A DNA stretch of 32,000 bases from an archaeon GW2011_AR10. GTDB lineage: Archaea > Iainarchaeota > Iainarchaeia > Iainarchaeales > GW2011-AR10. The DNA is taken from the NCBI GenBank assembly GCA_000830275.1, contig CP010424.1:180001-212000 (forward strand). Reading direction: 5' to 3'. The notes beneath the pieces were generated by a model. The model saw only the letters and a program-made list of their open reading frames with translations, did no database searches and was not told where the DNA came from. Both the position numbers and the translations under genes were made by a program. Positions 9,268 to 26,513 of this stretch are shown here, piece by piece; position 1 is the stretch's first letter; each line of letters opens with the position of its first letter.

Positions 9268-9938
9268 TGCAAATGCACAAGGATGAAAAACTCTGGGACA
9301 AGGTATACGATGAATTCAGGGGAGAAAGGAGTTCAGTGTGGAGGGAGACTGCAACCCCGTTTTTTACGCAGAAAGCAGAATACTTGAGGCATTTGGGGTT
9401 AAGAAAAATTCTAGACGCGGGATGCGGGGACGGAAGAAACATCCTTGCTTTTGCAAAATACGGATTTAATGCAACAGGAACAGACATATCAGGTTTGGCT
9501 TTGAAAAAAGCCGAAGAATTATGCAGAAATTATCCAAATGCGGAATTCAAAAAAGAACCGCTTGAAAAACCAAGCTTCAAGCGCGAATCATTTGACGTGA
9601 TTGTATGTGATTTTGTCACAGCCCATCTTAAAGAAATAGAACTCATAACAAATAACTTCCATAAACTTCTCAAGAAGAATGGATACCTGCTTATTGAATT
9701 CACTTCTTACAAAGATCCGCACTGTGGTAAAGGGAAAAAAATAGGTGAAAGGGAGTTCCTGCAAAAAGGGTTTTATCTAAGGTTTTACACCATTAATCAA
9801 ATAGAAAAAATAATGGGCAAATTCAGGATATTGTGCATTGATTCAATATCCTACACGGATCCAGGCCATGGAACAGGCTACAACAGAAAAAAAAGACACC
9901 AGCACCACTCCTACTTCGTCTTTGCTCAAAAAAATTAA
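9267..9938 (+). CDS. Class I SAM-dependent methyltransferase (second, unrelated paralog)
   Basis: Motif I is ILDAGCGDGRNILAFA, followed by GTDIS and FDVIVCDFV. The start is GTG at 9264 or ATG at 9267, and either overlaps the upstream stop (9265-9267). Confidence 0.8.
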   Translation: MQMHKDEKLWDKVYDEFRGERSSVWRETATPFFTQKAEYLRHLGLRKILDAGCGDGRNILAFAKYGFNATGTDISGLALKKAEELCRNYPNAEFKKEPLEKPSFKRESFDVIVCDFVTAHLKEIELITNNFHKLLKKNGYLLIEFTSYKDPHCGKGKKIGEREFLQKGFYLRFYTINQIEKIMGKFRILCIDSISYTDPGHGTGYNRKKRHQHHSYFVFAQKN

Positions 9939-10039
9939 ACCCCCAAAAAGGAACCTTCCAGAACCAATGAGGGAACGCGGAGGACGTAACAAAGTTACGA
10001 AATCCGACGCGGCAAATGCCCGCCAAAAAAAGGGCAAGA

Positions 10040-10203
10040 CGCGGAGGACGAGATTCGAACTCGCGCTCCTGTGAAGGAACACGCTGACTGATGCAACTGC
10101 CACCCGATTTCTTTCTTTTGGGCAACTTACACTTTTCTTTCTTTTCAAAAGAAAGAAAAGGGCAGTTCCAGGCGTGCGCGTTAGACCACTCCGCCACCCC
10201 CGC
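10040..10203 (-). tRNA. tRNA-Ser(GGA) with an 80-nt intron at the canonical 37/38 position (intron 10086-10165)
   Basis: I folded this by hand. The acceptor is GCGGGGG/CCTCCGC, the D stem GCG/CGC, and the anticodon stem CACGC/GCGTG. The loop is CTGGAA|intron|A. There is a 15-nt variable arm (TCCT/AGGA), T arm GCGAG-TTCGAAT-CTCGT, and discriminator G. A BHB is consistent: C32-G35 pairs with TCAG in the intron, flanked by 3-nt bulges AA|C and TC|A. Confidence 0.85.
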
Positions 10204-10415
10204 AACAACTGTTACGTCAGTTGACACCGTGTGGCATCTTCGATGCCACGTGCTCGGCTCTTGTGAGCCTCGCAACAACTGAAGCCTCAGTTGACTAAAA
10301 CTTTGGCAACTGAATATGTTTAATTATTTCTTTCGCCAAAGTTTTACAAGGCGTGCCATTTTCAATGGCACTGGCTCGCCCTTATGGGTTCGCAACAATT
10401 GAGGTTCCAGTAGTA
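10204..10415 (-). repeat. Modular hairpin-rich leader upstream of tRNA-Ser(GGA): three [CAACTG-N6-CAGTTG hairpin + TTGCG] junctions, two 51-nt structured units, one 11-bp inverted repeat
   Basis: The junction hairpins are at 10206-10223 and 10276-10293, with a degenerate third at about 10396-10413. Unit hairpins are GTGGCATCTTCGATGCCAC (10231-10249) and GTGCCATTTTCAATGGCAC (10353-10371). The inverted repeat AAAACTTTGGC/GCCAAAGTTTT spans 10297-10345. Confidence 0.55.
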
Positions 10416-11738: not shown

Positions 11739-11800
11739 CAAAATAATGGTTTAGTTAAGTTTATATATTACTTTTGTTTAACACTTATTGGCCTTTTCTC

Positions 11801-14449
11801 ATGAAGAATACATTGGTTTTACTTGCATTGCTTTTGGTTTCTTCTCTGGCTTATGCTGGGCCTGTTGAAGATGTTGCGACTGGCTTGAGCAGCCTTTTGT
11901 TCCAAGAAGCTGACAGATACTTTGATGACAGGTTTGACCCTTATGGTGGCGGTCCTTCTGGACCACAGCCTTTTGGCGGGCAAGGGCCTTACTCTGATCC
12001 GTTCAGTGCTCCTAGTGCGGGCGGCCCATTTGGGGGCGGCCCATTTGGTGCACCGCAACAACAGGGAGGTCCTTATGGGCAGCAGCCTTTTGGTGCACAA
12101 CAACCTTCTGGCGGGCAAGGGTTTGGTCCGCAGCAGGGTTTCGGCTTTAATGACTTCGCTCAGGGCAGTGGCCCATCCACTGGCTTTAACACTCCTTACC
12201 TTCCCCCAGAGTTCCCTACATCAATTTCGCCTGAAAAAATTTTGGAGGGAAAAATCAGGAACGTTATTTTCAGCGAACTCGACCCACTTCTAATTGAAGA
12301 GCTTTACCCGGATGAAGAAAGGGCAGTGGATTACCTTTACTCAACTGTTCAGGAAAGCGGTATTCTGGAAATATGCGAACAAATAGAGCTTGAAATAGAA
12401 AGATGCGAGCTTGGAAAGGATTTCTGTGACCAGATTGGAAGCGAAATGAACAACTTTGGCCCACCGCCTGGAGAGGCGCCGCCAGAGGCAATGGAAATAT
12501 TTGAGAACTTGTCATGTGATGAGGAGCCAGATGTTTCAAAGCTCACTGAAATAATGTTTGGCAAAATTAAGGAAAAAATGCAGCAAGAGCAAAAATTCAG
12601 GGATGAACAGCAGTGCTCTTTTAACTGGGAGCGGCAGAAGGATTTCCTTTGCAACAGGTCGCAGGACTTTGGCTACAACCAGGGGCCTTTTGGCGGCGAA
12701 GACTTTGACAGAAGATTTGAGGGACAAAGGGATTTCCCTGAGAGGCCATTCAATGAAGGGCCAAAGTGTACCTCAGAAAATGACTTGGCTTTAAGGGAGG
12801 ACAAGTGCAGGGTTAGAGGAAAAGAATCGTTTAGAGTGAGGGGAAGCGATGGCTGCCCATTTGTTGAGTGCGTTGAAAGCGGCTCAAGGCCGTCAGGCGA
12901 AATTTATAGGGAGGAACAGGTTGCGCGTGAGCCTTACTCTAGCCCAGAACCTTACAATGAACAGGAACCCTTCTATGATAGGCCACAGTGCCAAGACATT
13001 CAACCTCAGTTTGACAGTTGTAGAAGCAGTGGAGGCAACCCAATAACCTATAATTCCAATGGTTGCGACTATTTCCAGGGGTGCGAGTATCCGCAACAAC
13101 CAGTTGGGCAGCCGGTTCAGGAACCAATAGAGCAGCCTCCAGCTGAAGAACCAAGTGGTGGAGAAATAACGACGAGTGCACTTGGCAATGATTTGCTTGT
13201 GGCAAGTTTGCAGGAAGAATCTGTTGAGCCTGCACCCGAGCCTGTTGTTGAGCCTGAACCAATTGTGCAGGAACCAGAATCAGTGCCTGTTGAACAGGAA
13301 CCTGTTTATGATAATGTAGTCCAGTCAGAGCAACCATTTTATGGTGACGGTTTTGACCGCGGATTTGAAAGGCCGCCTTTTGAGCCAGAGCACGTTGAGC
13401 CGTTCCAGCCTTATGGGCCTGAACCTTTTGGCGGCCAATACGGGGGAGGCCAATATGGCGGTGGTCCATCACCCGGCGCTTATGGTGGAGGGCCTTTTGG
13501 TGGTCCGCAAGGCGGAGGACAGAGCCAGGATTGTGACAGAGAAAAATTTATTGCGCAATGCATTGAGTCATCCAAGAAAATGTCTGAAAAGTTTTTCAGC
13601 GAGGAAAGGATCAAGAAGCAAATTGGATTTGAAATGAAGAGGGTTGCGAAAGAATACCAGTTTTTCTGCAAGCAGGCAGAGTTCGGGCAAAAGCAATGCG
13701 TCAGGCATGTTGAGAGATCGTGCACGTTCATTGATGCGCAGCTTAAAACTTGCAGAACTTTAACAACAGAGGACAAAGTGAGGGAAATAGTGAGAAGAAT
13801 TGTGCAGAACATTTTCAAGTGGAAGAAATTGCAGGAACTGAAAGAGGAAAAAGGCTTTGAGTCAAAAATTTTGGATGCAGCTGAAGGCTTGAGCGAGGAC
13901 TCATACTACTTGGAAGGCGATTTGTCATCTGTTGTTTCAGTAACCAGCTCAGAACTGGTAGATGCTGCTGCAACAGTAGAGGAATTGAACGAATCTGAAA
14001 GAAACAAAGACATTTTGTATCATTTTACAAAAGTGTTCGGCTTCCAAAAAGAAAATGAAAGGGGTGAAGCAAACAAGCTGTCAAAGCAGATTGAAAAAAT
14101 TGAGGCAACAATTGATGCACTTGAAGTCGTAGTCGAGCAAGTTGACGATGATATGCTGAGGAGAAGAATTTCCCAAGTGATTGATGAACTTGAAAAAGAA
14201 AAAAGTTCGCTTGAATCTGTTTATGACAACAAATTAAGCGGTGCCGGCGGCTTGTTTGGTGGAGTCAGCGAGGAAGAAGTTAAATCAGGCGAAGCACTTG
14301 TCTGCGAAACCGGAAGAGCCGACTGCGATGGATTGTCAGTGAACGGCTGCGAATCAAGCTTGGAAAGAGATTACGAGAACTGCGGTGCATGCGGCATAGT
14401 GTGCAATGAAAATGAGGCATGCGTTAACAGCGTGTGCACTTCAATATAA
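11801..14449 (+). CDS. Large secreted protein: G/P/Q/F-rich low-complexity regions, acidic Cys-containing core, coiled-coil region and 8-Cys C-terminal module
   Basis: ATG at 11801 gives the signal peptide MKNTLVLLALLLVSSLAYA (the track start at 11774 is TTG). PFGG/PYGG-type repeats lie at 11936-12193 and 13424-13527. The C-terminus is CETGRADCDGLSVNGCESSLERDYENCGACGIVCNENEACVNSVC. There is no C-terminal TM helix. Confidence 0.8.
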   Translation: MKNTLVLLALLLVSSLAYAGPVEDVATGLSSLLFQEADRYFDDRFDPYGGGPSGPQPFGGQGPYSDPFSAPSAGGPFGGGPFGAPQQQGGPYGQQPFGAQQPSGGQGFGPQQGFGFNDFAQGSGPSTGFNTPYLPPEFPTSISPEKILEGKIRNVIFSELDPLLIEELYPDEERAVDYLYSTVQESGILEICEQIELEIERCELGKDFCDQIGSEMNNFGPPPGEAPPEAMEIFENLSCDEEPDVSKLTEIMFGKIKEKMQQEQKFRDEQQCSFNWERQKDFLCNRSQDFGYNQGPFGGEDFDRRFEGQRDFPERPFNEGPKCTSENDLALREDKCRVRGKESFRVRGSDGCPFVECVESGSRPSGEIYREEQVAREPYSSPEPYNEQEPFYDRPQCQDIQPQFDSCRSSGGNPITYNSNGCDYFQGCEYPQQPVGQPVQEPIEQPPAEEPSGGEITTSALGNDLLVASLQEESVEPAPEPVVEPEPIVQEPESVPVEQEPVYDNVVQSEQPFYGDGFDRGFERPPFEPEHVEPFQPYGPEPFGGQYGGGQYGGGPSPGAYGGGPFGGPQGGGQSQDCDREKFIAQCIESSKKMSEKFFSEERIKKQIGFEMKRVAKEYQFFCKQAEFGQKQCVRHVERSCTFIDAQLKTCRTLTTEDKVREIVRRIVQNIFKWKKLQELKEEKGFESKILDAAEGLSEDSYYLEGDLSSVVSVTSSELVDAAATVEELNESERNKDILYHFTKVFGFQKENERGEANKLSKQIEKIEATIDALEVVVEQVDDDMLRRRISQVIDELEKEKSSLESVYDNKLSGAGGLFGGVSEEEVKSGEALVCETGRADCDGLSVNGCESSLERDYENCGACGIVCNENEACVNSVCTSI

Positions 14450-14528: not shown

Positions 14529-14639
14529 GCAAAACTCGGGGTTTTGCGAGGCCCGCAAAATCTTTGATTTTGCTTGGGTTTCCCAAAAGGTTTTTGGAGA
14601 AGCCGGTTTTTCGCAAACCTTTTTCCAAAAGGTTTTTGG
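14529..14639. repeat. Array of five consecutive short hairpins with A/T-run stems, including two copies of TCCAAAAGGTTTTTGGAGA
   Basis: The hairpins are GCAAAAC-tcgg-GTTTTGC (14529-14547), GCAAAATC-ttt-GATTTTGC (14555-14573), CCAAAA-ggt-TTTTGG (14583-14597), GGTTT-ttcgc-AAACC (14605-14619) and CCAAAA-ggt-TTTTGG (14625-14639). A long-range pair GATAAGCA (14641-14648) / TGCTTATC (14692-14699) follows. Confidence 0.6.
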
Positions 14640-14750
14640 AGATAAGCAGGGATCTGCACGGCGTAAACCGGCGGTTCCCCGCAAAGCAGTATGCTTATCT
14701 CCTTAACTCCCAATACAGTAAAAAGTATTGGCTTAACTTTTTAAATAACT

Positions 14751-14801
14751 TTTCTTTTTTTTGCGTTTTTTTTCCTTTGAGCTCGTTTTTCTTGTTTTTT
14801 T
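14751..14801 (+). terminator. Cluster of oligo-T tracts downstream of the hairpin array
   Basis: The tracts are tttctttttttt, gcgtttttttt, cgttttt and tgttttttt. Several T5-T8 runs fall within 50 nt on the plus strand. Confidence 0.4.
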
Positions 14802-14876: not shown

Positions 14877-15566
14877 ATGGACAAATCCTTGGAGATTGTC
14901 AGGAAGCTTGGCTTGAACGAGTACGAGTCAAAAGCCTATCTGGCACTGCTTCGGTTTAGGTCAGCGCAGGCCTCAAGTATCAGCAGGCATGCGGCTATTC
15001 CTAGGGCAAGAGTCTATGATGTGCTTTCAACCCTTGAAAAAAAGGGTTTTGTGCAGCGCAAGCCTGTCAAGCCGGTTGAGTATTTTGCTCTGCAGCCCTC
15101 AGAGGTCTTCAAAAAGTTGGAGAAAGAGAAAAAAGCAGAGCTTGATTCAAGGCTCTTAGAGCTAAATGAAGCCATTAAAAGGGTTGAGAAAGAGCTGGTG
15201 TCAGACACTGTTTCAGTTGCAACCGGCGAGCAGGTGTGGCTGGTTGAGGGAAGAGACAATATCTACACAAGGATACTGCAACAGTTAGAGAACTGCAAGG
15301 AAACGGTTATTATTTCCGGTTCAAACGACTCAATTAAGAGAAAAAAGGCTGCTTTCAGGCAGAATCTGGATGCCCTGCCTAAAAAGGGAGTCAAAGTCAA
15401 GTACAGGCTGCTATCCCCGCGGTCTAGTGCGCGTTTTATGGTGTTCGACAGGCAGGCAGTGCTGTTGTTCTTAAGCAACGATCCTGCGAGTGCAGGCCAA
15501 GAAAAAGCTGTGCTGATTCAAAGCCCTTTCGTGGCAAACTTTTTTTCAAGCGCAGCCAAGAATTAG
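14877..15566 (+). CDS. TrmB-family transcriptional regulator
   Basis: LGLNEYESKAYLALLRFRSAQASSISRHAAIPRARVYDVLSTLEKKGFVQRKPVKPVEYFALQP is the canonical TrmB N-terminal winged HTH. It is followed by a coiled coil and a short C-terminal domain. Confidence 0.85.
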   Translation: MDKSLEIVRKLGLNEYESKAYLALLRFRSAQASSISRHAAIPRARVYDVLSTLEKKGFVQRKPVKPVEYFALQPSEVFKKLEKEKKAELDSRLLELNEAIKRVEKELVSDTVSVATGEQVWLVEGRDNIYTRILQQLENCKETVIISGSNDSIKRKKAAFRQNLDALPKKGVKVKYRLLSPRSSARFMVFDRQAVLLFLSNDPASAGQEKAVLIQSPFVANFFSSAAKN

Positions 15567-15568
15567 CT

Positions 15569-18500
15569 TTATTTCTTCTTTTGGGCTCTAGGCTGAGGCT
15601 TGCTTTTGGCTGGGGCTTTCTTTTTTTGGGCTGCCCCTGTTTCCTTTGCAGTTTCCCCTGCGTTTGCCTGTGCTGGCGGAGCTTCCTTTGCTTTCAGCAC
15701 AGAGTAAATTATCAATCCAATAACTATCAGCAGCAGCAATACAATTATTGCGTTTCTTGGTGTAACCAGGGTTAGGAGCCCTGCTCCAATGCTTACTGCA
15801 CTGCCTTCAATTGGAGTTCCTCCGCCTCCCTCTTTTTTCTCTTCTTGCCTGAATTGAATTTCAATGTTCCTTACAAAGCTTCCTTCATTGGTTCTAATCC
15901 TGATTGTTGCAACAGCCTTGGCCTTGTTAAAGTCTTCCGGCAGGTCAAGCAACATCCTTACCTTTGAGGATTCCTGTCTCTTTATCTTGCTTTCCTGCAA
16001 CTCGAACGCTGCATTGAAGTCAAGGCTCTCAATGCCTTGAATTTCAAGTGTTCTGTTTGAATCATTCATTAAATCAAATTCAACTACTGCATCAATTTCA
16101 ACAAGTTCTCTTTGCGTAATGCTTGTCAGGTTAACATCTGTGATGCTGACATTAACCGGAGTCAAACCGTAGCTTGATCCAACCAAGTTGAGTTTCACTT
16201 CGCCGAATGTGCCATAGTCGAAATCGTTTTGAGCAGTTATGGTTATGAGTGAATCTGCTTCTGTTATGTCAAATGGCGGGGAGATAAAGAAGTAAACTTC
16301 TTTTCTTTCACCTTTCTCAAGCTCGACTGTTTCATCCACAAGGTAAACGAATGGCTTGTCAACGCTTAACTGCACTTTGAAACCGGTTTGCCCCTGATTT
16401 TCAAGGATTATGGTCTGCTGCTTTCCTTCGCATGTGGCAGCGTCAACTTCCGGTTCAACAATGATGAGGTCAAAGCCATAACAGCTTGCGCTGCTCAAAT
16501 AATTAATTGAGGCAGCGTCACTTGCAGTGAAGTCAGGAGAGCTGACAGCAACCTCAATTTCTTCAGCCTCTGTTTCAAGTGGCGGCCTTGCCCTGATTCC
16601 GATAAATGTTTCTTCTGCTGGTTCAATTGTGATTGATTCGGTTTCAAGCTCAACCCATTCAGGTTCAACGCTTACCGAAACACTCTGGGGTTTAGAGCCA
16701 ATGTTTGTTAGGCTGATGAAGTCATTCAAAGGAATGCCTTTGCATAAGTTAAGCTCAGGCACAACAACTGCTATGTTGTGGCAGTCGTTAACTGTAACAG
16801 TGTAATCTTTTTCAAAGGAAAAGTATTCGGATGAAAGCTTGAGCGTGAAGGTTCTTTCCCCTGCAGCGCCCGGCTCTATGTTTAGTTCCTTTGTTATCTG
16901 CTTGAATGTTTCAAGCAGTTCCTCGGAGTTGCGTGCATCATAATAAAGGCCGCCTGTTGCCTCAACAATTTCTTGGAGCTGCCGCTTTCCAGTTTCATCT
17001 ATGTCAAAGCCTATCGCGTAAACAACAATGCCTTCACTGCGCAAGCTGTTTGCTGCACTTGAAATGTTTCCCTCGCAGCTCTCCTTCCCGTCGCTCACAA
17101 GAATAATGTACTTTTCTTTTGTTCCTCCAAAATCATTTGCTGCTGAGTCAAGGCTGCTTACAAGAGGGGTTTGGCCCACTGGATTGAAGCCCTGGATTCT
17201 CTCAGTTATTTCCGGAATGTCAAGCTTGGAAACAGCCACAAGCAACTCGGATTCACTGCATTCCTCTTTGTGGCCGAAAACCCTCAGGCCAAGCTCAACC
17301 TCTGTTATGTTGTTTACAAAGGAAATAATTGCATTTTTTGCAATGTCAAGTTTTTTGGTTCCCTCAATTCTTTGAGCCATGCTTCCAGAAGAGTCCATTA
17401 CGATTTCAATTGCAACATCGCTTCTGCTTATTGAGCCCTCTCTTCCAATATCTGAAACTTTAAGTTCAGCCGTAACCTCTTTACTGCTTCCCTGCTTTAG
17501 TGAAATGCTTTCATCGCTCAGCTCTGCGTCAATTCCTTCAACTTCAACCGCAACATCTAAGTCCTTGACCCCGTCATTTGAGAGAGAGAACCTGTAAACA
17601 GGTGTTGCTTCCATGCACAGGCTTTCCTCCCCTTCAAGCCTTTCAACTGAAACATTGTAGCAGTCAAGCAGTGAAACCTCAAAGTTTTTTGTTTCCTCGA
17701 AGTCAAAAAGCTGTGAGCGCGCGGTAATTGAAATGTCATAAGTTTTTTCTTCCTCAGAGGTTGCATTGAATGCAAGCTCAACTTCTTGGCTCTCTCCTGG
17801 CGCCAGTTCAATTGTGTCAGCTGAAATGCTCACCCAGCTTGGAGCATCAAGCTCAAGGTCAAGGACATCCTTCTTCAAGCCGTTGTTTTCAAACTCAACT
17901 GTTCTGCTGATTGTTTCCTCAGTGCAAGCAACATAGCTTGCCTCGCTTTCAATTAATAGTTCCTGTCCTTCTGAAAGCACGTACTCAGCTGAGTCCCTTG
18001 ACTTGAAGTCAGGGTTGAATAGTTCTGCAACAACATCAAACTCGTAAGTGCCAAGCGGAGCGTCGCATGGAGCCTGCACTTTCAGCTCAACTTCTTCCGG
18101 GTTGCCTTTTGTCACAATAAGCTCGCGGCTTTCAAGCTCAAACCAGTCTTCGGGAATTCCTTCAACCCTTAGCTTTACTGCTTCAGTTCTCTGGTTTGGC
18201 ACAATAGTGTTGTTTGAAAGCTCTACAAGATAGCTTTTTTCCTCGCACTGCGTTGCAACCTGCCTTTCAGGGCTTATGTCAATGTCAACAAAGTGCCCCT
18301 GCTCAATGTCAATAACGCAGCTGACTGATTCAATTGTACTATCGCCGCTTACAACAATTTCTGCCTCATAGGTGCCTGGTTCAGCATAACAATTGGCAAT
18401 AGTGTATGTCCTGAGCTGCTTGCATTCACCGCTTTCAAGCGAAAACCGTTCAGGCAGAACATTAACCCAGCTTGCAACTTCACCGCTGGTTCTTGCAGTG

Positions 18501-18661
18501 TAAGTGTGCGCTTCCAGCGAATCGTTGCAGACCTCCAGCTCGTTTATTGAAAGCTCGCACTGGGTGCTCGCAGAACTGCAGCTGCCGCTTAACTCAACAG
18601 CCCTAACAGCTGCTCCAAAAAGCAGTACAATGACCCCTAAAAGCAAAAATCTTTTGTCCAT
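15569..18661 (-). CDS. Surface type-I membrane protein: repeated CARDB/NEW3-like beta-sandwich modules with an inserted MIDAS-type vWA domain
   Basis: The signal peptide is MDKRFLLLGVIVLLFGAAVRA. Repeats follow the type ...LRVEGIPEDWFELESRELIVTKGNPEEVELKVQAPCDAPLGTYEFDVVA. The vWA domain lies at 16892-17419, with DSSGS (17381-17395), GQTPL and LVSDG. The protein ends in a C-terminal TM helix and a Lys-rich tail. The ATG overlaps the upstream stop (TAATG). Confidence 0.85.
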   Translation of the reverse strand: MDKRFLLLGVIVLLFGAAVRAVELSGSCSSASTQCELSINELEVCNDSLEAHTYTARTSGEVASWVNVLPERFSLESGECKQLRTYTIANCYAEPGTYEAEIVVSGDSTIESVSCVIDIEQGHFVDIDISPERQVATQCEEKSYLVELSNNTIVPNQRTEAVKLRVEGIPEDWFELESRELIVTKGNPEEVELKVQAPCDAPLGTYEFDVVAELFNPDFKSRDSAEYVLSEGQELLIESEASYVACTEETISRTVEFENNGLKKDVLDLELDAPSWVSISADTIELAPGESQEVELAFNATSEEEKTYDISITARSQLFDFEETKNFEVSLLDCYNVSVERLEGEESLCMEATPVYRFSLSNDGVKDLDVAVEVEGIDAELSDESISLKQGSSKEVTAELKVSDIGREGSISRSDVAIEIVMDSSGSMAQRIEGTKKLDIAKNAIISFVNNITEVELGLRVFGHKEECSESELLVAVSKLDIPEITERIQGFNPVGQTPLVSSLDSAANDFGGTKEKYIILVSDGKESCEGNISSAANSLRSEGIVVYAIGFDIDETGKRQLQEIVEATGGLYYDARNSEELLETFKQITKELNIEPGAAGERTFTLKLSSEYFSFEKDYTVTVNDCHNIAVVVPELNLCKGIPLNDFISLTNIGSKPQSVSVSVEPEWVELETESITIEPAEETFIGIRARPPLETEAEEIEVAVSSPDFTASDAASINYLSSASCYGFDLIIVEPEVDAATCEGKQQTIILENQGQTGFKVQLSVDKPFVYLVDETVELEKGERKEVYFFISPPFDITEADSLITITAQNDFDYGTFGEVKLNLVGSSYGLTPVNVSITDVNLTSITQRELVEIDAVVEFDLMNDSNRTLEIQGIESLDFNAAFELQESKIKRQESSKVRMLLDLPEDFNKAKAVATIRIRTNEGSFVRNIEIQFRQEEKKEGGGGTPIEGSAVSIGAGLLTLVTPRNAIIVLLLLIVIGLIIYSVLKAKEAPPAQANAGETAKETGAAQKKKAPAKSKPQPRAQKKK

Positions 18662-20331
18662 TACTGTTCCCCTGATTCCAGTTTAGCCCAATAGTGGCGC
18701 TCTTTGTTACCACTGCTTAGTAAAGACAACATAACTATTGTTAGGGCAAATATTAATATAAATAATGCCCCCAGCGTAATTCCTGCGTTGCTGCCTGCAA
18801 GCGAAACCAATGCTGCCAGGCCAGCGAATTCTGGCTTTTGTTTTCCGTTTCCTTCATTTTGCTGGCTTCCCCCAGCCAAATTGCCGGAGCCATCCTCATT
18901 TTCTGCACCGCTTTCATTGCCGTTATCATTGCTCTCTTCATTGTTTTCTGGAAATGCTTCAACAACAGTGAAACGCAGTTCCTGCCTGAAAGTGAACTCT
19001 CTTGAAAGCCCCTTCACCACTAGCTCCACTTTCTTGTCGCCTAGTGGGGCATCAAACGAGGGAGCAACCGTAATGTACACTGTTTCTGTTTTGCCGTCCT
19101 CCACTTCTATGACTTCATCAGAAACATTCACGCCAATTGATTCATAGGGGTTTTCAACCCTGACTTCAACCCTTTCATCAAAGTCGCCTTTGTTTTCAAA
19201 CTCGATTTCGAATACCTCGAAATCAACGGCAGAGCAAATGCGCTGCTCGAACTCATTGTTGAGGACTTTTACTTCAAGCAGGTGCTTTGGCAGCACATTA
19301 ACCTTGGCTATTTCAAATTCCTCGCCTTTGCTGTTCCAAGCGAAAATCTGCACTTCGTGGATTCCTTTCTCATCAGTTTCCCTCGCTGAAACGTTTATGT
19401 AACTTTGCATTGACTCGTTTTCCTCAAGGCGGATTGTGAGGTCAGCTTCTTTTGTGGGCAAATCGCTTATTGAGCTGATCCTGATTTCCTGTTCCTCTTC
19501 AAGCAGGTTAGTCAAAGTGAACCGCAAAGGAACATCGGCTCCTTTCTCTACTTCCACGGATTCATCCAAGAGCACAAGCTCAAATGCCTCCTTTATTGCT
19601 GTTTCATCGTCTTCTTCAAAGCCAGTTTCCTCGTCAAAGCATTTTATGAGGCTGAAAGAAACTTCCCTTTGGACAAATCTGTCATTGCTGAGCGCGTATA
19701 TTGGAATAGTGTAAGAGCCTGCCCTGAACGAGTCATTCAAGTGGATTTCCAGTTCAACTGTTCTTGTCTCGTTTGGGTCAAGCCTCAGCTCCGTGTTGTT
19801 AAATGTTGGCAAAAACAGTTCTGAGTCAGCGGAAAGGAAAACCCTCTGCCTTTCACTGCTTAAATTTGCAACCTCAACCTGAATTGTTTTGGTGTAAGAG
19901 TCAATGCAGAACTCTTGCCCTTGGTTAAAGGGAAGCAACTCAATTGCTTCAAGCTCTTCAACCCTCACCTCAACAGTGTTGTAAGCGCTTCCCCTGCTGA
20001 ATTCTGTTTCAAGCTCAACAAGATAGCTTCCTTCTGCCGCATCATCTTTCGCAAAAACGGTCAAGGAAAAAACAAGTGATTCTCTTGGATTAATTGAAAA
20101 TTTTTTGTTGGCTGCAACGGCTTCAATTGAACCTGAACTCGTGTCAACAAAAAGTTCAACGAATGCAGTTTCCTCGAAGTCACTGTTGAAGAACTCCAAA
20201 AAAATTGATGCCTCATTCCCCTGCACCAAATTAATGGAATCAAATTCTGTTTCAACAGTTACATCAGCAGCAAATGCAAGGCTGGGCAAAAGAGCAACGA
20301 GTAAAACTGTTAATGCTGTTCGCTTGTTCAT
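18661..20331 (-). CDS. Surface type-I membrane protein with about five acidic beta-sandwich repeats
   Basis: The signal peptide is MNKRTALTVLLVALLPSLAFA. Repeats end in motifs such as AEGSYLVELE, RAGSYTIPIY and APLGDKKVELVV. A Gly/Asn/Glu linker precedes PEFAGLAALVSLAGS and the TM helix. The ATG is 4 nt after the upstream stop. Confidence 0.8.
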   Translation of the reverse strand: MNKRTALTVLLVALLPSLAFAADVTVETEFDSINLVQGNEASIFLEFFNSDFEETAFVELFVDTSSGSIEAVAANKKFSINPRESLVFSLTVFAKDDAAEGSYLVELETEFSRGSAYNTVEVRVEELEAIELLPFNQGQEFCIDSYTKTIQVEVANLSSERQRVFLSADSELFLPTFNNTELRLDPNETRTVELEIHLNDSFRAGSYTIPIYALSNDRFVQREVSFSLIKCFDEETGFEEDDETAIKEAFELVLLDESVEVEKGADVPLRFTLTNLLEEEQEIRISSISDLPTKEADLTIRLEENESMQSYINVSARETDEKGIHEVQIFAWNSKGEEFEIAKVNVLPKHLLEVKVLNNEFEQRICSAVDFEVFEIEFENKGDFDERVEVRVENPYESIGVNVSDEVIEVEDGKTETVYITVAPSFDAPLGDKKVELVVKGLSREFTFRQELRFTVVEAFPENNEESNDNGNESGAENEDGSGNLAGGSQQNEGNGKQKPEFAGLAALVSLAGSNAGITLGALFILIFALTIVMLSLLSSGNKERHYWAKLESGEQ

Positions 20332-20335
20332 AAAA

Positions 20336-21328
20336 TCACTTCTTTCCCTGAATCCTTTCCTTTAGCTCCTCAAGCCTTGGATTGTAAGTTTCAAACTTGT
20401 CTCTCGGCCTGCCTGCACGAACTTCATGTCGCTGCACTGAAGCAGTATTCGTTTCCGGTTTTGCTGGTTTTTCGCCGCCGATTTTTCTGACGAACCTTGC
20501 AATGAACGCAATTAAGAGCACTGCCGCAATCAAAACCAATGCGATGTCCAGCAGCAGCTCCAGCTCCGAGAATTCAAACGGCCTGTTGAGTTGCTCAAAC
20601 GAAAACAGTGAAGCCAAACCACTGAAGAAATTGTTTCCTTCGCTTCCGGCAGAAACATTCAGCGAACGCTTTTCAATGAAGTCGCCGCACTTGAACAATA
20701 GTTCCGCTTCTCCTTCAAAGGCCGAGTTAGGGGTGATTGTAACAGTTAGATTTTTTTGCTCCAGCCTGCCAACTGAAACCGCATTTGGAAGCTCAATGCC
20801 CCAAGACTCTGGCAGGCCACTGATTTTTGCCAGCTCAACTTCCTCGCTGGAAACAGAACTGTTTTTTAGTGCAGCTACAACAAAAAGCTTTTCACCGTTT
20901 TCTTGGCTTTTGTTTAAGGAAAGGTCAATTGAAACAGGGCAGGAAAGCGCTCTCTCAAACGAAATCTTAAAGTTTTTTTCCGCAGCTCTTTTTCCGAGTT
21001 TAGCTGAAACAGTTGCAGTGATTTCTTTTCCATTAAGAGTGCTTTCAGGGAAAACCCTGACAGTAACCCTTTCTGTTCTGCCAGCGCCAACAATGCCCGG
21101 CTGCTCCAAGAACTCTGTTTCTGCAGGCGCAAGCACTTCCACTTCCAGCGGCCTATCAACAATGTCGTCATTTGTTACCTTGAAATAGAATTCTGTTGGA
21201 ATGCCCTTAACCGTAACAGTGCCAGGCAACTCTGAAATGAATGCGCTTGCCTCTGAAAAAAGCAGCAAAAAAAACGCCAATGCCAGAACATTTTTCCCAA
21301 GAAAACCCATTTTTTCACTTGTTAACAT
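20336..21328 (-). CDS. Surface type-I membrane protein with two to three beta-sandwich repeats
   Basis: There is a signal-like N-terminus (an alternative ATG at 21310 gives MGFLGKNVLALAFFLLLFSEASA). The repeats are followed by FFSGLASLFSF, a TM helix and a 50-aa basic tail. Confidence 0.75.
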   Translation of the reverse strand: MLTSEKMGFLGKNVLALAFFLLLFSEASAFISELPGTVTVKGIPTEFYFKVTNDDIVDRPLEVEVLAPAETEFLEQPGIVGAGRTERVTVRVFPESTLNGKEITATVSAKLGKRAAEKNFKISFERALSCPVSIDLSLNKSQENGEKLFVVAALKNSSVSSEEVELAKISGLPESWGIELPNAVSVGRLEQKNLTVTITPNSAFEGEAELLFKCGDFIEKRSLNVSAGSEGNNFFSGLASLFSFEQLNRPFEFSELELLLDIALVLIAAVLLIAFIARFVRKIGGEKPAKPETNTASVQRHEVRAGRPRDKFETYNPRLEELKERIQGKK

Positions 21329-21398
21329 TAATAGAGTACTATAACTAAGTGCTGGTAAATGAATTATTTAAAGATATCGTTTGGCTTCAGGGATGGTC

Positions 21399-24300
21399 TC
21401 ATTTTCTGACCAATGCAACGATAATTGCAATTACGATGATTAGTATAATCAGAAGGATAATTCCTAATCCCACTGAGCCTGCCAAGCCCAGCAAACCAGA
21501 AATGAGCCCAGGCTCTTCGCCTTCATCTGCTGGAGCTTCAACGCTTACCTTGAACGCTTCAACAGCTCTTGCCTGGTCTGATTCAACTTCAAGCAATGCC
21601 GTGAAATCCTGCTCTTCAGCACCGGCTGCATTAATGGTGCCAGTAACATTTATTGTTTCTCTGGCGCCTAACTGCTGCCTTACAATTGGCTCAAATGCAA
21701 CTTTTTCAGGGAGGTTAGCTATTGAGACAACAACGTTTGTCATTATGCTGCTGGAGTTGTTCTTAATTGAAAAAGAGAACTGCTTTGACTGGCTGGATGA
21801 AAGCTCAACAACCTGCGGCAGGCCGAATACTTCCAGCTCCGGCTCAGCAGGCCTTGGCTCTTCGCCTAAAACATTCACCTTAACCAAGTTAATGATTGCA
21901 GGGAAGTCTCCCTCAGCCTTAAACGTAACCGTATAATTGCCTGGCCTGGCGCTTGAAAGAGCCTTGACAGTCAATTCAATTTCCTTGTCATTATCCCTGC
22001 TTAAGCAGAATTCACTGTCTTCCAGCGAAGCTTCAATGGATGCTGAGTTGCTTGAAACACTCAAATCAAAGCATTCACTGCTGTTTGAGTTGTTTTCTAC
22101 TCCCACAGTTATCTTCTTCAGCCTGCCTGGTTCAAGTGAAATGCTTGCAGGGGAAACATTTACCTCAATGTCATCTGCTTCAACAGCATCGCCTGTGTTG
22201 AGGATTGTAATTCTGTCAGTCAACTTAATGTCATTGAAGCCGCAGCTCTTCCCGTCCTCGAATGAGCCGTCAACTTTCAGGGTTACGTTTGCAGTTCTCC
22301 TGCTTGGAACTGCCCTTGACTCAAACCTTACTTCCACTTTTGCTGAACCGAAAGCGCTTATTTTTGTAGGTTCGTTCCTCACTGAAGCTGAAAGGTAAGT
22401 TGAATCCTCAGATACCTGCACGTTGTCAACAAAGAAATCCTTGCTGCTGCGGTTCCTGATTATAATTTCCTTTGTTTCAGTCCTGTTCTCTCTCAGTGAA
22501 AAATCAAACGAATCAATCTTTATGTTTCCGCAGACAGCGCTGCCGCCTGAAACATTCTCAACAACAACCCTGAAGCTTTCAGTTCCAACAGAGTCAAAAC
22601 TGCAGCTTCTCCCGTCTTCAAACTCTCCGCTTACCTTTATTTTTCCAAAGCCTTCCTCTGTCCTTGAAACGGAATTGCTTTCAACCCTGACCTTTAAGTC
22701 AGCGCTGTCATCACTTCTTGCAATAGTGTCATGGGAGACAAGGCTAACGTCGAATTCCCTCTCAGATTCAAAGACATCAACATCGTCAATGAAGAAGTCC
22801 TGGCCTGAATTGTTCCTTATGCTGAAATCAGCTGTTTCAACATCTTCCTCGTCAACGAAGACAGTGCGGGTTTCAACATCAATGTCAGAGCAGAAGCCGT
22901 TTGAAGAGCGCTCAACAATCATTCTTGCAGTCTCAAAGTCCTCTAATCCGTCAGTGTCCTCAACAACAACAGTAACAAGGTTGGTGCCGGTGCTGTTTCT
23001 TCGCGGAGCATCGCACTCCAAGTGGCGGTCATCCGAAATAAAGCAGTCAACAAGTGAAGAGTTAGTCTGGTTGCTTACCCTAAAGTCGAGTTCGCTGTCA
23101 GAGTCCTCGTCATCGCTTGCGTAATCCCACAAGTCAATCAGCCTTTCCTGGAACCCGTCATTTTCCTCAATAACTTTGTCAGGCAGCTTTGAAATCCTTG
23201 GGGCCTGAATCAGTTCATCCTCCGGGAAAACGGTTACATCAAATGAGTCAGAGTCAATTTTTCCGCCTGAATCCTCTGCTTCTATAACAATTGAGCTTGT
23301 TCCTGTTTCATCTCTGTCCGGGGCAAAGCACTCAAAGTACCTGTTTCCAACAATCAAGCAGTCAATGAGGCCGGTGCTTGACTGGGAAACAATGCTGAAT
23401 GAAAGTTCACTGTCAGAATCCTCTGCATCAGAAGCGTAATTCCAGAGGTCAACAAGCCTGTCGGAGTAGCCGGAGTTCTCTTCTATCTCTCTGTCAGGCA
23501 AATTGCTGATTGATGGAGCATCATTTGAGCCGTTGTTGTTTCCGAGTTCTTCGTCAATAATGTTCTCGAAAACGCTGAATGGCTGTGCACCAACAAGCTT
23601 CTGTCCATTAATAAAAAATGTAGGTGTTCCGCTTATGTCTCTGTTTTCACCGTTTCTCAGGTCATCTAGAACTTCAGGCAAATATTGTTTTGAATCAAGG
23701 CAGGCATTAAAGCTATTCTCATTAAGGCCTGCTTGACTTGCATACTGCTTGAGTGCACTGTTGCTAAGGTTGCTTTGGTTGTTAAACAGTATTTCTGCGT
23801 ATTGCCAGAATTTCCCTTGGCTATGTGCACATTCCCCTGCTATTGCTGCCCCTTCGGCATTTGAGTGGAATGAAAGCGGGAAATTCCTGAAAATTATCTG
23901 CACATCACTACCATACTTACTGAGTATCTGGTCGTGCGTTTCTGTAAAGTATTTTCCGCTAAAAGGGTCTTGGAAACCCAAGTAAGCCTCAATTGTGACT
24001 GGTGCATTAGATCCTCCTGTTCTAGGCTCTGACAGTTGATCCTGCGGGGTTACAGGCTGTGGTGCATTTTCAAAATCAATTCTTATCTGCACGTAAACAT
24101 AGGAGAAATCTCCTTGGTAGTTATTGGGGAAAGTGCAGTTGTCAATGCCCTTAGCGTGCACTGTGTTGTAGCCTTCGTGCACATAACTTGTGATATCAAC
24201 GTTCGCGTTTAACGGAAATTCAGGGTATGGGTTAACAGAGCAGTTGCCTGTGTTTGGGTCGTTGAAGACCCTGGTTCCATTGATTTCCACAAAGCCGTCA

Positions 24301-24518
24301 TCATCAAACCAAACCCTTTCAAGCGTTACCTTGTTGTAGTCTGCTGGAATGTAAATTACGCTTGTGCCCTCGCAGTCAATGCTTTGCCCTGGATGGAAGT
24401 CCTCGCAGATGGTTTCGATTAAGGTTACATATCCTGGGCCTGTTAAGGTGACTGAATCGGCATAGGCAAAGCTTGCTAAAAACAGAAAAATTAACCCAAA
24501 AATAAAGCTTTTACTCAA
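21399..24518 (-). CDS. Surface type-I membrane protein: N-terminal lectin-like beta-sandwich, CxxC-less DsbA-like thioredoxin fold, two cadherin-like repeats and multiple CARDB-like repeats
   Basis: The start is TTG, with signal peptide MSKSFIFGLIFLFLASFAYA. The DsbA-like region is aa 170-325 (23544-24011), and DPFS sits where CPFC is expected (23958-23969). Tandem repeats lie at 22911-23519 and 22197-22892. The C-terminus is PGLISGLLGLAGS plus a TM helix plus RK. Confidence 0.85.
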   Translation of the reverse strand: MSKSFIFGLIFLFLASFAYADSVTLTGPGYVTLIETICEDFHPGQSIDCEGTSVIYIPADYNKVTLERVWFDDDGFVEINGTRVFNDPNTGNCSVNPYPEFPLNANVDITSYVHEGYNTVHAKGIDNCTFPNNYQGDFSYVYVQIRIDFENAPQPVTPQDQLSEPRTGGSNAPVTIEAYLGFQDPFSGKYFTETHDQILSKYGSDVQIIFRNFPLSFHSNAEGAAIAGECAHSQGKFWQYAEILFNNQSNLSNSALKQYASQAGLNENSFNACLDSKQYLPEVLDDLRNGENRDISGTPTFFINGQKLVGAQPFSVFENIIDEELGNNNGSNDAPSISNLPDREIEENSGYSDRLVDLWNYASDAEDSDSELSFSIVSQSSTGLIDCLIVGNRYFECFAPDRDETGTSSIVIEAEDSGGKIDSDSFDVTVFPEDELIQAPRISKLPDKVIEENDGFQERLIDLWDYASDDEDSDSELDFRVSNQTNSSLVDCFISDDRHLECDAPRRNSTGTNLVTVVVEDTDGLEDFETARMIVERSSNGFCSDIDVETRTVFVDEEDVETADFSIRNNSGQDFFIDDVDVFESEREFDVSLVSHDTIARSDDSADLKVRVESNSVSRTEEGFGKIKVSGEFEDGRSCSFDSVGTESFRVVVENVSGGSAVCGNIKIDSFDFSLRENRTETKEIIIRNRSSKDFFVDNVQVSEDSTYLSASVRNEPTKISAFGSAKVEVRFESRAVPSRRTANVTLKVDGSFEDGKSCGFNDIKLTDRITILNTGDAVEADDIEVNVSPASISLEPGRLKKITVGVENNSNSSECFDLSVSSNSASIEASLEDSEFCLSRDNDKEIELTVKALSSARPGNYTVTFKAEGDFPAIINLVKVNVLGEEPRPAEPELEVFGLPQVVELSSSQSKQFSFSIKNNSSSIMTNVVVSIANLPEKVAFEPIVRQQLGARETINVTGTINAAGAEEQDFTALLEVESDQARAVEAFKVSVEAPADEGEEPGLISGLLGLAGSVGLGIILLIILIIVIAIIVALVRK

Positions 24519-24604
24519 TCCAGATGCCCCTATAAATTAATTTGTTACTATTAAGTAGTGACATAGAAGTTATTTAAAAGTATCGATTTCTGCAGCTTTT
24601 GCAC

Positions 24605-25171
24605 TTATTTCCGCTTCAGCATCGAATTCAGCAAATCTGACTTAGTTATAATTCCAACAATCTTGCCCTTCCTTGCCACCAGCACTCCTGCATTGTTTTC
24701 CAACAGTGCCGAAACCGCCCTGAAAGAGCTGTCCCCCATAATTACAGGCATTGCCTCACCCATAACATCTCTTACAATCAGTTTTCCGGCTTTTGTGGGA
24801 TCATTCACTTCATTCATTTTGTCAAGCACCAGTTTCTCTGAAATAGTTCCGATGTTTTTGCCTTCCTCGATTACTGGCAGCTGGGAAACAGCATTCTTTT
24901 CCATTGCTCTTGTTGCATCTTTCAGTGTTGAATCAGGTCTGGCACTTAAAACTTTATGGGCCATAAGCTGATGTGCTCTCAGTTCACTCTCATGGTGCAG
25001 GGACTCAAAAAAATCAAAAAGTTTTTTTGCGTTAGCGTAGCCCGGAATAATGCGGCCGGCCTCGGTTTTTGCAATCAATGACTGGCTTACGCCGGTTTTC
25101 TGCGCCAGTTCAATCTGGGTTAAATCGAATGCCTGCCTTTTTCTTTTCAGCTCTGACAGCTCCGGCAGCAC
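24605..25171 (-). CDS. XRE-type HTH plus CBS-domain-pair regulator
   Basis: The HTH is LTQIELAQKTGVSQSLIAKTEAGRIIPGYANAKKLFDFF. Two CBS motifs follow (...VSQLPVIEEGKNIGTISE... and ...AGVLVARKGKIVGIITKSDLL). The start is GTG. Confidence 0.8.
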   Translation of the reverse strand: MLPELSELKRKRQAFDLTQIELAQKTGVSQSLIAKTEAGRIIPGYANAKKLFDFFESLHHESELRAHQLMAHKVLSARPDSTLKDATRAMEKNAVSQLPVIEEGKNIGTISEKLVLDKMNEVNDPTKAGKLIVRDVMGEAMPVIMGDSSFRAVSALLENNAGVLVARKGKIVGIITKSDLLNSMLKRK

Positions 25172-25248: not shown

Positions 25249-25340
25249 AAATATTGGTTTTTTTTAAATATTGGTTTTTTTAGGTTTTGGAATTTTTGAA
25301 ATTTTTGCATTCAAAGGGTTTTGGAATTTTCGCATTCAAA
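25249..25340 (+). promoter_or_regulatory. metK upstream region: tandem AAATATTGGTTTTTTT repeat (TATA-like) followed by two copies of a GGTTTTGGAATTTT...GCATTCAAA hairpin-forming repeat
   Basis: Repeat 1 is at 25249-25265 and 25266-25281. Repeat 2 is at 25283-25315 (with a 9-nt internal duplication) and 25317-25340. The AAGGAG SD is at 25345-25350 and the ATG at 25359. Confidence 0.45.
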
Positions 25341-25358
25341 TGGAAAGGAGTTGGTTTA

Positions 25359-26513
25359 ATGGCAAGGAATTATTTTTTTACCTCGGAGTCAGTAACTGAG
25401 GCTCACCCGGACAAAATGTGCGACCAAATCAGTGATGCGATTCTTGACGCAATGATAAGGGGTGACCCTAACTCAAGGGTTGCTGTTGAAACAGCGACAA
25501 AAACCGGCCTCATACTTGTCTTTGGCGAGGTTACAACTAAAACATATGTTGACATCCAGAGCATTGTGCGAAACACTATCCGCGAGATAGGTTACAATAA
25601 GCCGGAGTATGGTTTTGATGCGGATGCTTGCTCTGTTCTGATTTCCCTTTCCGAGCAGTCAGGCGACATTGCGCAGGGAGTCAATGCAGGTAAAAGCAAG
25701 GAGCAGGGCGCTGGCGACCAGGGAATGATGTTTGGCTATGCAACCAGCGAAACACCTGAGTTAATGCCTTTGCCAATACTGCTTGCGCACAAGCTCACAA
25801 AAAGGCTTGCAGAGGTTAGGAAAAAAGGAGAGATTTCCTGGATTAGGCCTGACGGCAAAAGCCAAGTCACTATTGAGTATGAGAACGGCAAACCAATAAG
25901 GGCCGATACAATCCTTGTCAGCACGCAGCACAATGATATTCCATACGAGCAGATAAGAAAGGAAGTAATTGAGAAGGTAATAAAGCCAGTGTGCAGGGAG
26001 TGGATTGACAAGAAAACAAAATTCTTGGTTAACCCAACTGGAAGATTTGTTATCGGAGGCCCTGTTGGGGATTCAGGTTTAACCGGGAGAAAAATAATTG
26101 TTGACACTTATGGAGGGGTTGGGGCGCATGGCGGCGGCTCTTTTTCCGGAAAGGACCCCAGTAAGGTTGACCGCTCTGCAGCATACTTTGCAAGGTATGT
26201 TGCAAAGAACATTGTTGCAGCAGGTTTGGCTGAAAAATGTGAAATACAGTTTGCTTACGCAATTGGAATCGCTGAACCAGTTTCAGTTTACGTCAATACT
26301 TTTGGCACTGGAAAGTTGCCGGATGAAAAGCTTGAGAAAATAGTGAAAAAGGTTTTTTCCTTCAAGCCAGCCGACATAATAAAGCACCTTAACCTCAAAA
26401 GGCCAATTTACCGCAAAACAGCTGCTTACGGCCACTTCGGCAGGAGCGAGCCGGAATTCACCTGGGAAAAAACTGACAAAACAAATGAACTGAAAAAAGC
26501 TGCAGGGCTTTAG
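25359..26513 (+). CDS. metK: S-adenosylmethionine synthetase, bacterial/eukaryotic (MetK) type
   Basis: Diagnostic motifs are [37 protein letters not shown] and [23 protein letters not shown]. The start is set at MARNYFF, because the track's 24-aa N-terminal extension covers the repeat region. Confidence 0.95.

Follow-up and report, generated by a model that had tools for sequence, protein, structure and literature searches.

A 32,000-nt stretch of the genome of archaeon GW2011_AR10 (Iainarchaeota; contig CP010424.1, positions 180,001 to 212,000), hereafter the window, carries on its minus strand four co-directional genes for predicted surface proteins: gene A (24518..21399; 1039 aa, TTG start), gene B (21328..20336; 330 aa), gene C (20331..18661; 556 aa) and gene D (18661..15569; 1030 aa). 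Our check of the open reading frames agrees with the positions given in a preliminary description of this DNA, and reading the window sequence bears out its spacings of 70 nt between A and B, 4 nt between B and C and a TAATG overlap between C and D. At the N-terminus of each protein a hydrophobic segment runs up to an AxA-like site (FAYA/D, EASA/F, LAFA/A and AVRA/V), and a Kyte-Doolittle scan shows one further hydrophobic helix near the C-terminus, which the AlphaFold2 (AF2) models place at residues 970-990 of D and 256-284 of B; with signal and transmembrane segments thus present throughout, the type-I plan of signal segment, acidic ectodomain and C-terminal transmembrane helix holds for all four. 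The N-termini are of the classical Sec/AxA type, which rules out type IV pilin-like signal peptides. Isoelectric points (pI) lie between 4.2 and 5.4, and the four proteins contain 43 N-x-S/T sequons against 23.5 expected from composition, while cytoplasmic neighbours have as many as expected or fewer; from this excess the ectodomains are predicted to be probably N-glycosylated. A [STA]G[LF]xxL motif common to all four families precedes the transmembrane helix by 8-25 residues; it reads SGLLGL in A, SGLASL in B, AGLAAL in C and AGLLTL in D. Beyond this motif they are less alike than the preliminary description had it: BLASTP links C to D (22% identity over 223 aa, E 2e-7) and, marginally, A to C (E 0.004), with no match of B to A, C or D, so that to call them four paralogues overstates the relationship. 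The immunoglobulin (Ig)-like repeat modules of CARDB/NEW3-like pattern that it described are recognizable in A, C and D as Pfam FixG_C, NEW3 or HYDIN-type matches, and B models as two beta-sandwiches. A scan of the window proteins found no ATPase, protease or sortase and no secretion partner, as that description had also said of the cluster.

The cluster is conserved across a single archaeal lineage. Contigs of several groundwater metagenomes encode an identical D protein, as does the metagenome-assembled genome GCA_013332025.1 (Candidatus Diapherotrites archaeon), and full-length D orthologues, at 37-52% identity, occur only in Iainarchaeum/Diapherotrites and 'archaeon' genomes, covering 20 GTDB species including Ca. 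Iainarchaeum andersonii. The genomes of these 20 species keep one gene order, in which metK points away from a gene for a helix-turn-helix (HTH)-CBS regulator that is followed co-directionally by A (where present), B, C and D, with trmB convergent on D; 12 further long metagenome loci share this synteny, so the doubt, raised in the preliminary description, that the order might not recur in relatives falls away. B, C and D are always present together and in the same order in the loci examined, and in every such locus the cluster is single-copy and lies at the same site beside housekeeping genes. Its GC content is unremarkable, and this, together with the deep synteny with housekeeping genes, rules out both a genomic island and the recent arrival of the entire cluster by transfer. 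Six near-identical contigs sample it at strain level, with at most 10 single-nucleotide polymorphisms per gene, too few to compare selective pressure.

A sister clade, whose metK is only 60-63% identical to that of the window, places the parts of the cluster in order of age. Here metK and the HTH-CBS gene are followed by a B of 185-200 aa, a C of about 610 aa and a shortened D, termed D' (735-793 aa), with no A and no trmB adjoining B-C-D. D' aligns with residues 21-408 and 587-1019 of D and is missing the von Willebrand factor A (vWA) domain that D has in between. Since D' aligns on both sides of the vWA domain but lacks it, the domain is read as an insertion between the fourth and fifth beta-sandwiches of D, and the triad as older than the domain. 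We therefore take the conserved, tightly coupled unit to be B-C-D, as predicted from these comparisons, with A an add-on. The preliminary description had proposed a metal-dependent assembly, but metal dependence cannot be the core mechanism because D' is without the vWA domain; metal-dependent binding is predicted to be a later addition to the cluster.

D itself consists of four beta-sandwiches, the vWA domain, three further sandwiches, a disordered linker, the AGLLTL motif, the transmembrane helix and a Lys-rich tail. The vWA domain (residues 416-595; 16877..17416, minus strand) matches PF00092 over residues 420-586 (44.2 bits against a cut-off of 23.8, E 3e-11) and VWA_2 (37.7 bits against a cut-off of 27). 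Residues D423, S425, S427, T498 and D524 of its metal-ion-dependent adhesion site (MIDAS), whose DSSGS is encoded at nt 17381-17395, are invariant in 25 D orthologues, which together with the Pfam match confirms the vWA domain with complete MIDAS that had been noticed in this last gene. Seventeen cysteines are likewise invariant in the 25 orthologues. The best conserved parts of D are the vWA domain and sandwich 2, and the distal domains are conserved, not hypervariable. The regions flanking the vWA domain give weak Ig-like matches to several families (FixG_C, NEW3, HYDIN/VesB and Cep192), with FixG_C at 51.6 bits in Pfam. An AF2 model built from the alignment of the 25 orthologues (mean confidence, pLDDT, 78) shows an alternation of strands and helices at residues 416-592, as in a Rossmann-like beta-alpha fold, with pLDDT of about 75-92. 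Profile matches of D in the PDB are confined to the vWA domain, the best in sequence being 4rck, 3ibs and 4jdu, of BatA/BatB type, and beyond the Iainarchaeum/Diapherotrites group D matches other proteins, mostly bacterial, through this domain only; the vWA domain is thus predicted to have bacterial, BatA/BatB-like affinities.

The two smaller subunits of the triad are built from similar ordinary modules. B comprises two PapD/ASH-like beta-sandwiches, the SGLASL motif, a near-invariant transmembrane helix, IAAVLLIAFIARFV, and a 45-aa cytoplasmic tail; it has no Pfam match, and its AF2 model (pLDDT 80) shows two PapD/ASH-type sandwiches, a short helix, the transmembrane helix and a C-terminal helix. 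In the AF2 models both D and B are chains of 7-9-strand sandwiches. An exhaustive profile search recovered 493 representatives of the B family at the 50% clustering level, mostly of 165-330 aa, two of which lie on contigs of 3-4 kb with little gene context. The most conserved part of the family is the transmembrane helix: in 148 of the 493 representatives its core has a conservation of 70-98%, compared with 20-40% in the ectodomain. The opposite would be expected of a passive anchor, and the pattern argues for specific helix packing or for recognition by an enzyme. C consists of about four to five Ig-like modules (FixG_C, 32.2 bits against a cut-off of 25.6; NPCBM_assoc, that is NEW3, 25.7 against 24.4), the AGLAAL motif and a transmembrane helix ending in LSLLSSGNK. 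At the helix and its boundary each family has a signature of its own, D.FL.IIAAxLLIAFIARxV[KR] in B, LSLLNSNKS in C, GLIxYSAY[KR]A in D and S[IV]FxKK in A, and in B, C and D a cytoplasmic tail of 10-60 residues follows the helix.

A is of a different character. Behind its signal peptide stand a unique N-terminal domain, a DsbA module, two Big_9 repeats, about four Ig-like modules, a PGL..SGLLGL stretch, the transmembrane helix and a terminal RK. The N-terminal domain (residues 21-160; 24039..24458, minus strand), which the preliminary description called a lectin-like beta-sandwich, is absent from the A orthologues of other species and gave no significant match in Pfam (best DUF7282, E 0.035) or in PDB sequences (best E 0.095), no match to a lectin, carbohydrate-binding module (CBM) or PA14 family in the same searches, and no BLAST match in 20 related loci. 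The module that follows (residues 164-323; 23550..24029, minus strand) matches PF13462, Thioredoxin_4, at 78.8 bits (E 7e-22), PF01323 at 48.6 bits and DsbA chains in the PDB at E 3e-13, and its closest homologues are bacterial tandem-DsbA proteins (45-52% identity). Where active homologues have FQCPFC it reads FQDPFS (nt 23958-23975), so that the CxxC is lost and the module is predicted to be a DsbA fold that is catalytically dead and not an oxidoreductase, in keeping with the degenerate DsbA fold previously noticed here. Its nearest relative, a tandem-DsbA protein of 536 aa (P0078), has likewise lost the catalytic cysteines (GFQDPYS and GFADQFS), which suggests that redox-dead DsbA folds form a small family of their own. 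The two repeats described as cadherin-like (residues 332-540; 22899..23525, minus strand) stand as Big_9, a cadherin-like or bacterial Ig family (29.2 bits against a cut-off of 23.6, in two stretches), with no match to the true cadherin family PF00028; they carry acidic DxDxD-like stretches.

Among A orthologues the number of Big_9 repeats varies from one to four, and in other species one such repeat also stands at the N-terminus of C; the N-terminal domain and the DsbA module are confined to the A of this species and have no counterpart in other A orthologues. Four species of the vWA clade have no A at all. In one species without A, the C orthologue (L018/L008, 5047-9987) is 1646 aa long, about three times the length found here. 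Distal modules thus seem to move between A and C, and A is predicted to be a variable, module-shuffling accessory subunit specific to the vWA clade and no part of the core.

The upstream regions suggest that A is also set apart in its transcription. Its TATA box, TTTTAAATAA (24570..24579, minus strand), is preceded by a AAATCGATA resembling a transcription factor B recognition element (BRE) and is conserved in an 8-species alignment. Sixteen nucleotides downstream of the TATA box lies an imperfect palindrome, GTCACTACTTAATAGTAAC (24544..24562, minus strand), a candidate operator whose exact sequence is unique in the window and which recurs at the same offset in six species whose A proteins are 26-39% identical. 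It contains TACT-N4-AGTA, and since sites of TrmB-family regulators have been described as TACT-Nx-AGTA (PMC4158304), the palindrome fits the consistently adjacent trmB gene. A second TATA box, CTTTAAATAA (21364..21373, minus strand), lies in the A-B gap and is taken as the B-C-D promoter; of the 17 related loci checked, 14 have a TTTA[AT]A box 44-60 nt upstream of B, irrespective of A. Between A and B there are never fewer than 28 nt, whereas the B-C and C-D junctions mostly fall between -4 and +6 nt, although wider gaps and longer overlaps (up to 271 nt) also occur. The cluster had been described as one operon of four genes, but a TATA box in the A-B gap of most relatives makes two transcription units more likely, and A probably forms a separate unit, as judged from its own conserved promoter. 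Downstream of the TATA box of B, 20-45 nt upstream of the gene, most species (loci L010-L029) have a leader of the form GCA[GC]CAAT ... ATA[GT]TAAC, which in L025, L028 and L029 reads TAGTAGTAAC, like the A operator; it may serve as a second operator or be a conserved 5' leader.

The genes on either side of the cluster both encode regulators. The TrmB-family protein (229 aa; 14877..15566, plus strand) is convergent with D across a 2-nt gap, is syntenic in almost every locus of the vWA clade and, by position and motif, is a candidate for regulating the cluster. Upstream of trmB, the intergenic segments 14579-14642 and 14735-14755 contain a 22-nt near-palindromic repeat, TTTYCCAAAAGGTTTTTGGAGA, in two copies 42 nt apart, and a TATA region, TTTTTAAATAACTT, almost identical to that of the A promoter; these elements are possible regulator sites or a small RNA. 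On the other flank, the HTH_3 protein with two CBS domains (24605..25171, minus strand) lies upstream of A and co-directional with it, is divergent from metK and is syntenic in both clades. It forms with metK, which encodes a bacterial/eukaryotic-type S-adenosylmethionine (SAM) synthetase (25287-26513, plus strand), a pair kept in both clades at more than 30 loci; the position of a CBS-domain regulator beside metK suggests SAM- or adenosyl-ligand-responsive control of metK and not of the surface genes. One strain variant of the same population as the window (L004, 1488-2059) has a ribbon-helix-helix (RHH)/PemK toxin-antitoxin pair between a tRNA-editing gene and metK, which the window and the other contigs are without.

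Two further features lie elsewhere in the window. An Rfam tRNA match on the minus strand (10040-10203; 40.5 bits), not reported by ARAGORN, spans 164 nt for model positions 1-71, which suggests an intron-containing archaeal tRNA, and it underlies two spurious open reading frames (9823-10278 and 9843-10208). On the plus strand, 11774-14449 encodes a secreted protein of 891 aa with Gly/Pro/Gln-rich low-complexity stretches, a coiled-coil-like middle and 28 cysteines, whose C-terminus resembles the MXAN_6577 Cys-rich module, though at a score under the NCBIfam cut-off (E 7.6e-5); conservation of this protein is poor, with one weak match, in L020.

The cluster was judged in the preliminary description not to be a recognized system, and we found no account of it in Pfam, NCBIfam, the PDB or the full-text literature; an NCBIfam scan of A-D gave no sorting signal or named family above threshold. 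Several known systems resemble it in part. In architecture D may be compared with integrin beta and with ANTXR1/2 (TEM8/CMG2), type-I proteins with an extracellular vWA/MIDAS domain beside Ig-like domains, and the vWA-like domain of integrin beta is inserted in an Ig-like (hybrid) domain much as that of D appears to stand between two beta-sandwiches; integrins are heteromers of membrane-anchored subunits, to which the cluster might be likened. However, D has no similarity to these proteins outside the vWA fold and lacks a beta-propeller partner, EGF/PSI modules and an NPxY tail, and Pfam found no integrin beta-propeller, PSI or EGF domain in A-D. Gram-positive pilus-tip adhesins of the RrgA/GBS104 type likewise carry a MIDAS vWA domain set among serial Ig-like domains at the surface of a prokaryotic cell, but they are sortase/LPXTG substrates with isopeptide-bonded CnaB domains that are polymerized into pili, whereas the cluster has no sortase, LPXTG or pilin genes and every chain has a transmembrane anchor of its own. 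SlaA/SlaB are, as is predicted for the cluster, adjacent, co-expressed genes for glycosylated beta-sandwich surface proteins, one of them a smaller membrane-anchored subunit, but there is no homology, and here all subunits are membrane-anchored and the partners number three or four. The BatA/BatB membrane proteins of the aerotolerance operon provide the best PDB matches to the vWA domain, yet they have a different topology and no Ig arrays, and D scores 22.6 with NCBIfam BatA (NF047508) against a cut-off of 380; with no AAA/MoxR or DUF58 gene in the window either, a Bat/MoxR system is ruled out. WxL/Csc clusters of Enterococcus and Lactobacillus (WxLIP, DUF916/DUF3324) also combine several secreted proteins, thought to assemble at the surface, with type-I transmembrane Ig-like proteins, but any resemblance would be weak and below family thresholds (Pfam WxLIP_PGBD, E 0.0013; Foldseek 9i25 and 9i1y), and these bacterial systems depend on peptidoglycan and WxL domains. 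The cluster shows none of the family-defining features of the integrin, adhesin, SlaA/SlaB, Bat or WxL/Csc systems.

We consider, at a probability of roughly one half, that B-C-D is a lineage-specific heteromeric envelope or adhesion complex of Sec-exported type-I membrane proteins in Iainarchaeota, a reading favoured by the strict co-occurrence of the three genes, their fixed order, the closeness of their start and stop junctions and the anchor module that they share. Contact among the three proteins is a prediction from these observations. Several points weigh against this reading: the inter-domain geometry of the D model is unreliable (predicted template modelling score, pTM, 0.34); searches of the PDB with the whole-chain models of D and B by Foldseek returned generic Ig-array matches only, with a template modelling score (TM-score) below 0.4; the conserved transmembrane helices might instead reflect recognition by a processing enzyme; the link to TrmB consists of synteny and motif resemblance only; and B-C-D of the sister clade has no trmB beside it. 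The Foldseek matches, to hydin, CFAP, CEP192 and A2M (ASH and macroglobulin arrays) and to PapD-type chaperones, are too generic for the folds to be informative on a specific function.

An alternative interpretation is that no complex exists and that A-D are independent surface proteins, adjacent through shared regulation or history, whose C-terminal module is a sorting or processing signal of archaeosortase-like or similar type. The module does have a tripartite look of motif, transmembrane helix and basic residues, A ends in RK or KK directly after the helix with a PGL before the motif that resembles PGF-CTERM, and the helix of B is conserved beyond the needs of an anchor, as a site recognized by an enzyme would be. 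We nevertheless regard this interpretation as unlikely because no NCBIfam sorting-signal model matches, because B, C and D continue past the helix with tails that sortase-type signals normally do not have, and because the helix signature differs from family to family, unlike a single shared enzyme site; strict co-occurrence and mostly abutting or overlapping junctions also fit stoichiometric partners better than independent proteins. The preliminary description had given, as an example, attachment to a host or partner by an episymbiotic cell; on such a reading the vWA/MIDAS of D and the distal A modules would be what binds the host surface. A complete MIDAS vWA domain in an extracellular Ig array is what pilus-tip adhesins and integrins have, shuffling of the distal A modules between species is what one would expect of a recognition subunit, and most DPANN are ectosymbionts (PMC10936187); however, Iainarchaeota/Diapherotrites are the one DPANN group reported as possibly free-living (PMC10936187). 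Moreover, the B-C-D core of the sister clade has neither vWA domain nor A, the vWA domain and N-terminal sandwiches of D are its most conserved parts when they might have been its most variable, and A is missing in the four vWA-clade species mentioned above. These points weaken the episymbiotic proposal, and we hold host attachment to be improbable to a similar degree.

Still less probable, in our view, is that the cluster is the S-layer itself, with D, alone or with C, forming the lattice and B serving, like SlaB, as membrane stalk or anchor. The proteins have the generic hallmarks of S-layer proteins, though these are not specific to them: signal peptides, a low pI, more sequons than expected, arrays of Ig-like modules and transmembrane anchors at the C-terminus; a single cluster per locus at a constant site beside housekeeping genes and the conserved distal domains of D would suit a lattice protein, and the co-transcribed lattice and anchor pair slaA/slaB of Sulfolobales offers a precedent (preprint 10.1101/2024.05.28.596244). 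Yet Pfam, NCBIfam and the PDB gave no match to an S-layer family (S_layer_N/C, DUF1608/MSTP, halobacterial csg or SlaA/B), and anchoring of all three or four subunits in the membrane is unusual for lattice proteins. A survey preprint, furthermore, names another protein, A0A2G9N319 (1039 aa), as the S-layer protein of Iainarchaeota, nominated through homology to the Methanococcales/DPANN type and with a predicted 6+2 lattice; none of the listed D orthologues has that length and a UniProt source. The absence of a family match and this nomination also weaken the S-layer association suggested in the preliminary description.

If the heteromeric complex exists, B, C and D would be made in fixed proportion and would assemble through their transmembrane and juxtamembrane segments, the resulting hetero-oligomer standing out from the membrane either below the S-layer or through it. 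In the Iainarchaeum clade a vWA domain of bacterial type would have entered D between its fourth and fifth sandwiches, with a MIDAS that may bind a carboxylate ligand through a divalent cation; the putative ligand could be a partner subunit, a component of the S-layer or some external surface. This clade would also have gained A, separately transcribed and with the same anchor module, its distal modules shuffled between species; its dead DsbA module could at most bind, not oxidize. Repression of the A promoter, and possibly of that of B, is probably the task of the neighbouring TrmB-family regulator, acting on TACT/AGTA palindromes where transcription starts. Taken together, the role would be surface scaffolding and binding of ligands or partners, not catalysis or secretion. 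A bolder version of this proposal, which we consider doubtful, is that B-C-D is a previously unrecognized heterotrimeric envelope machine across Iainarchaeota, that the B transmembrane helix and the [STA]G[LF]xxL motif represent a new anchoring, assembly or targeting signal, and that the vWA insertion and the shuffling fourth subunit turned the version of one clade into an integrin-like, MIDAS-dependent receptor or S-layer tether.

The B-C-D module is real, conserved and undescribed, and is made of ordinary building blocks; its function is what we infer. Iainarchaeota are uncultured, and for the study of their envelope B-C-D, found at the same site in every related locus examined, offers a concrete target. 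The near-invariant transmembrane helix of B is the most unusual element of the cluster; it provides a searchable signature and may mark a new principle of anchoring or assembly. The vWA insertion and the module-shuffling A form a natural experiment in which an archaeal surface complex would have gained bacterial ligand-binding modules, and should the complex act as an S-layer tether or in cell contact, it would bear on whether this DPANN lineage is free-living.

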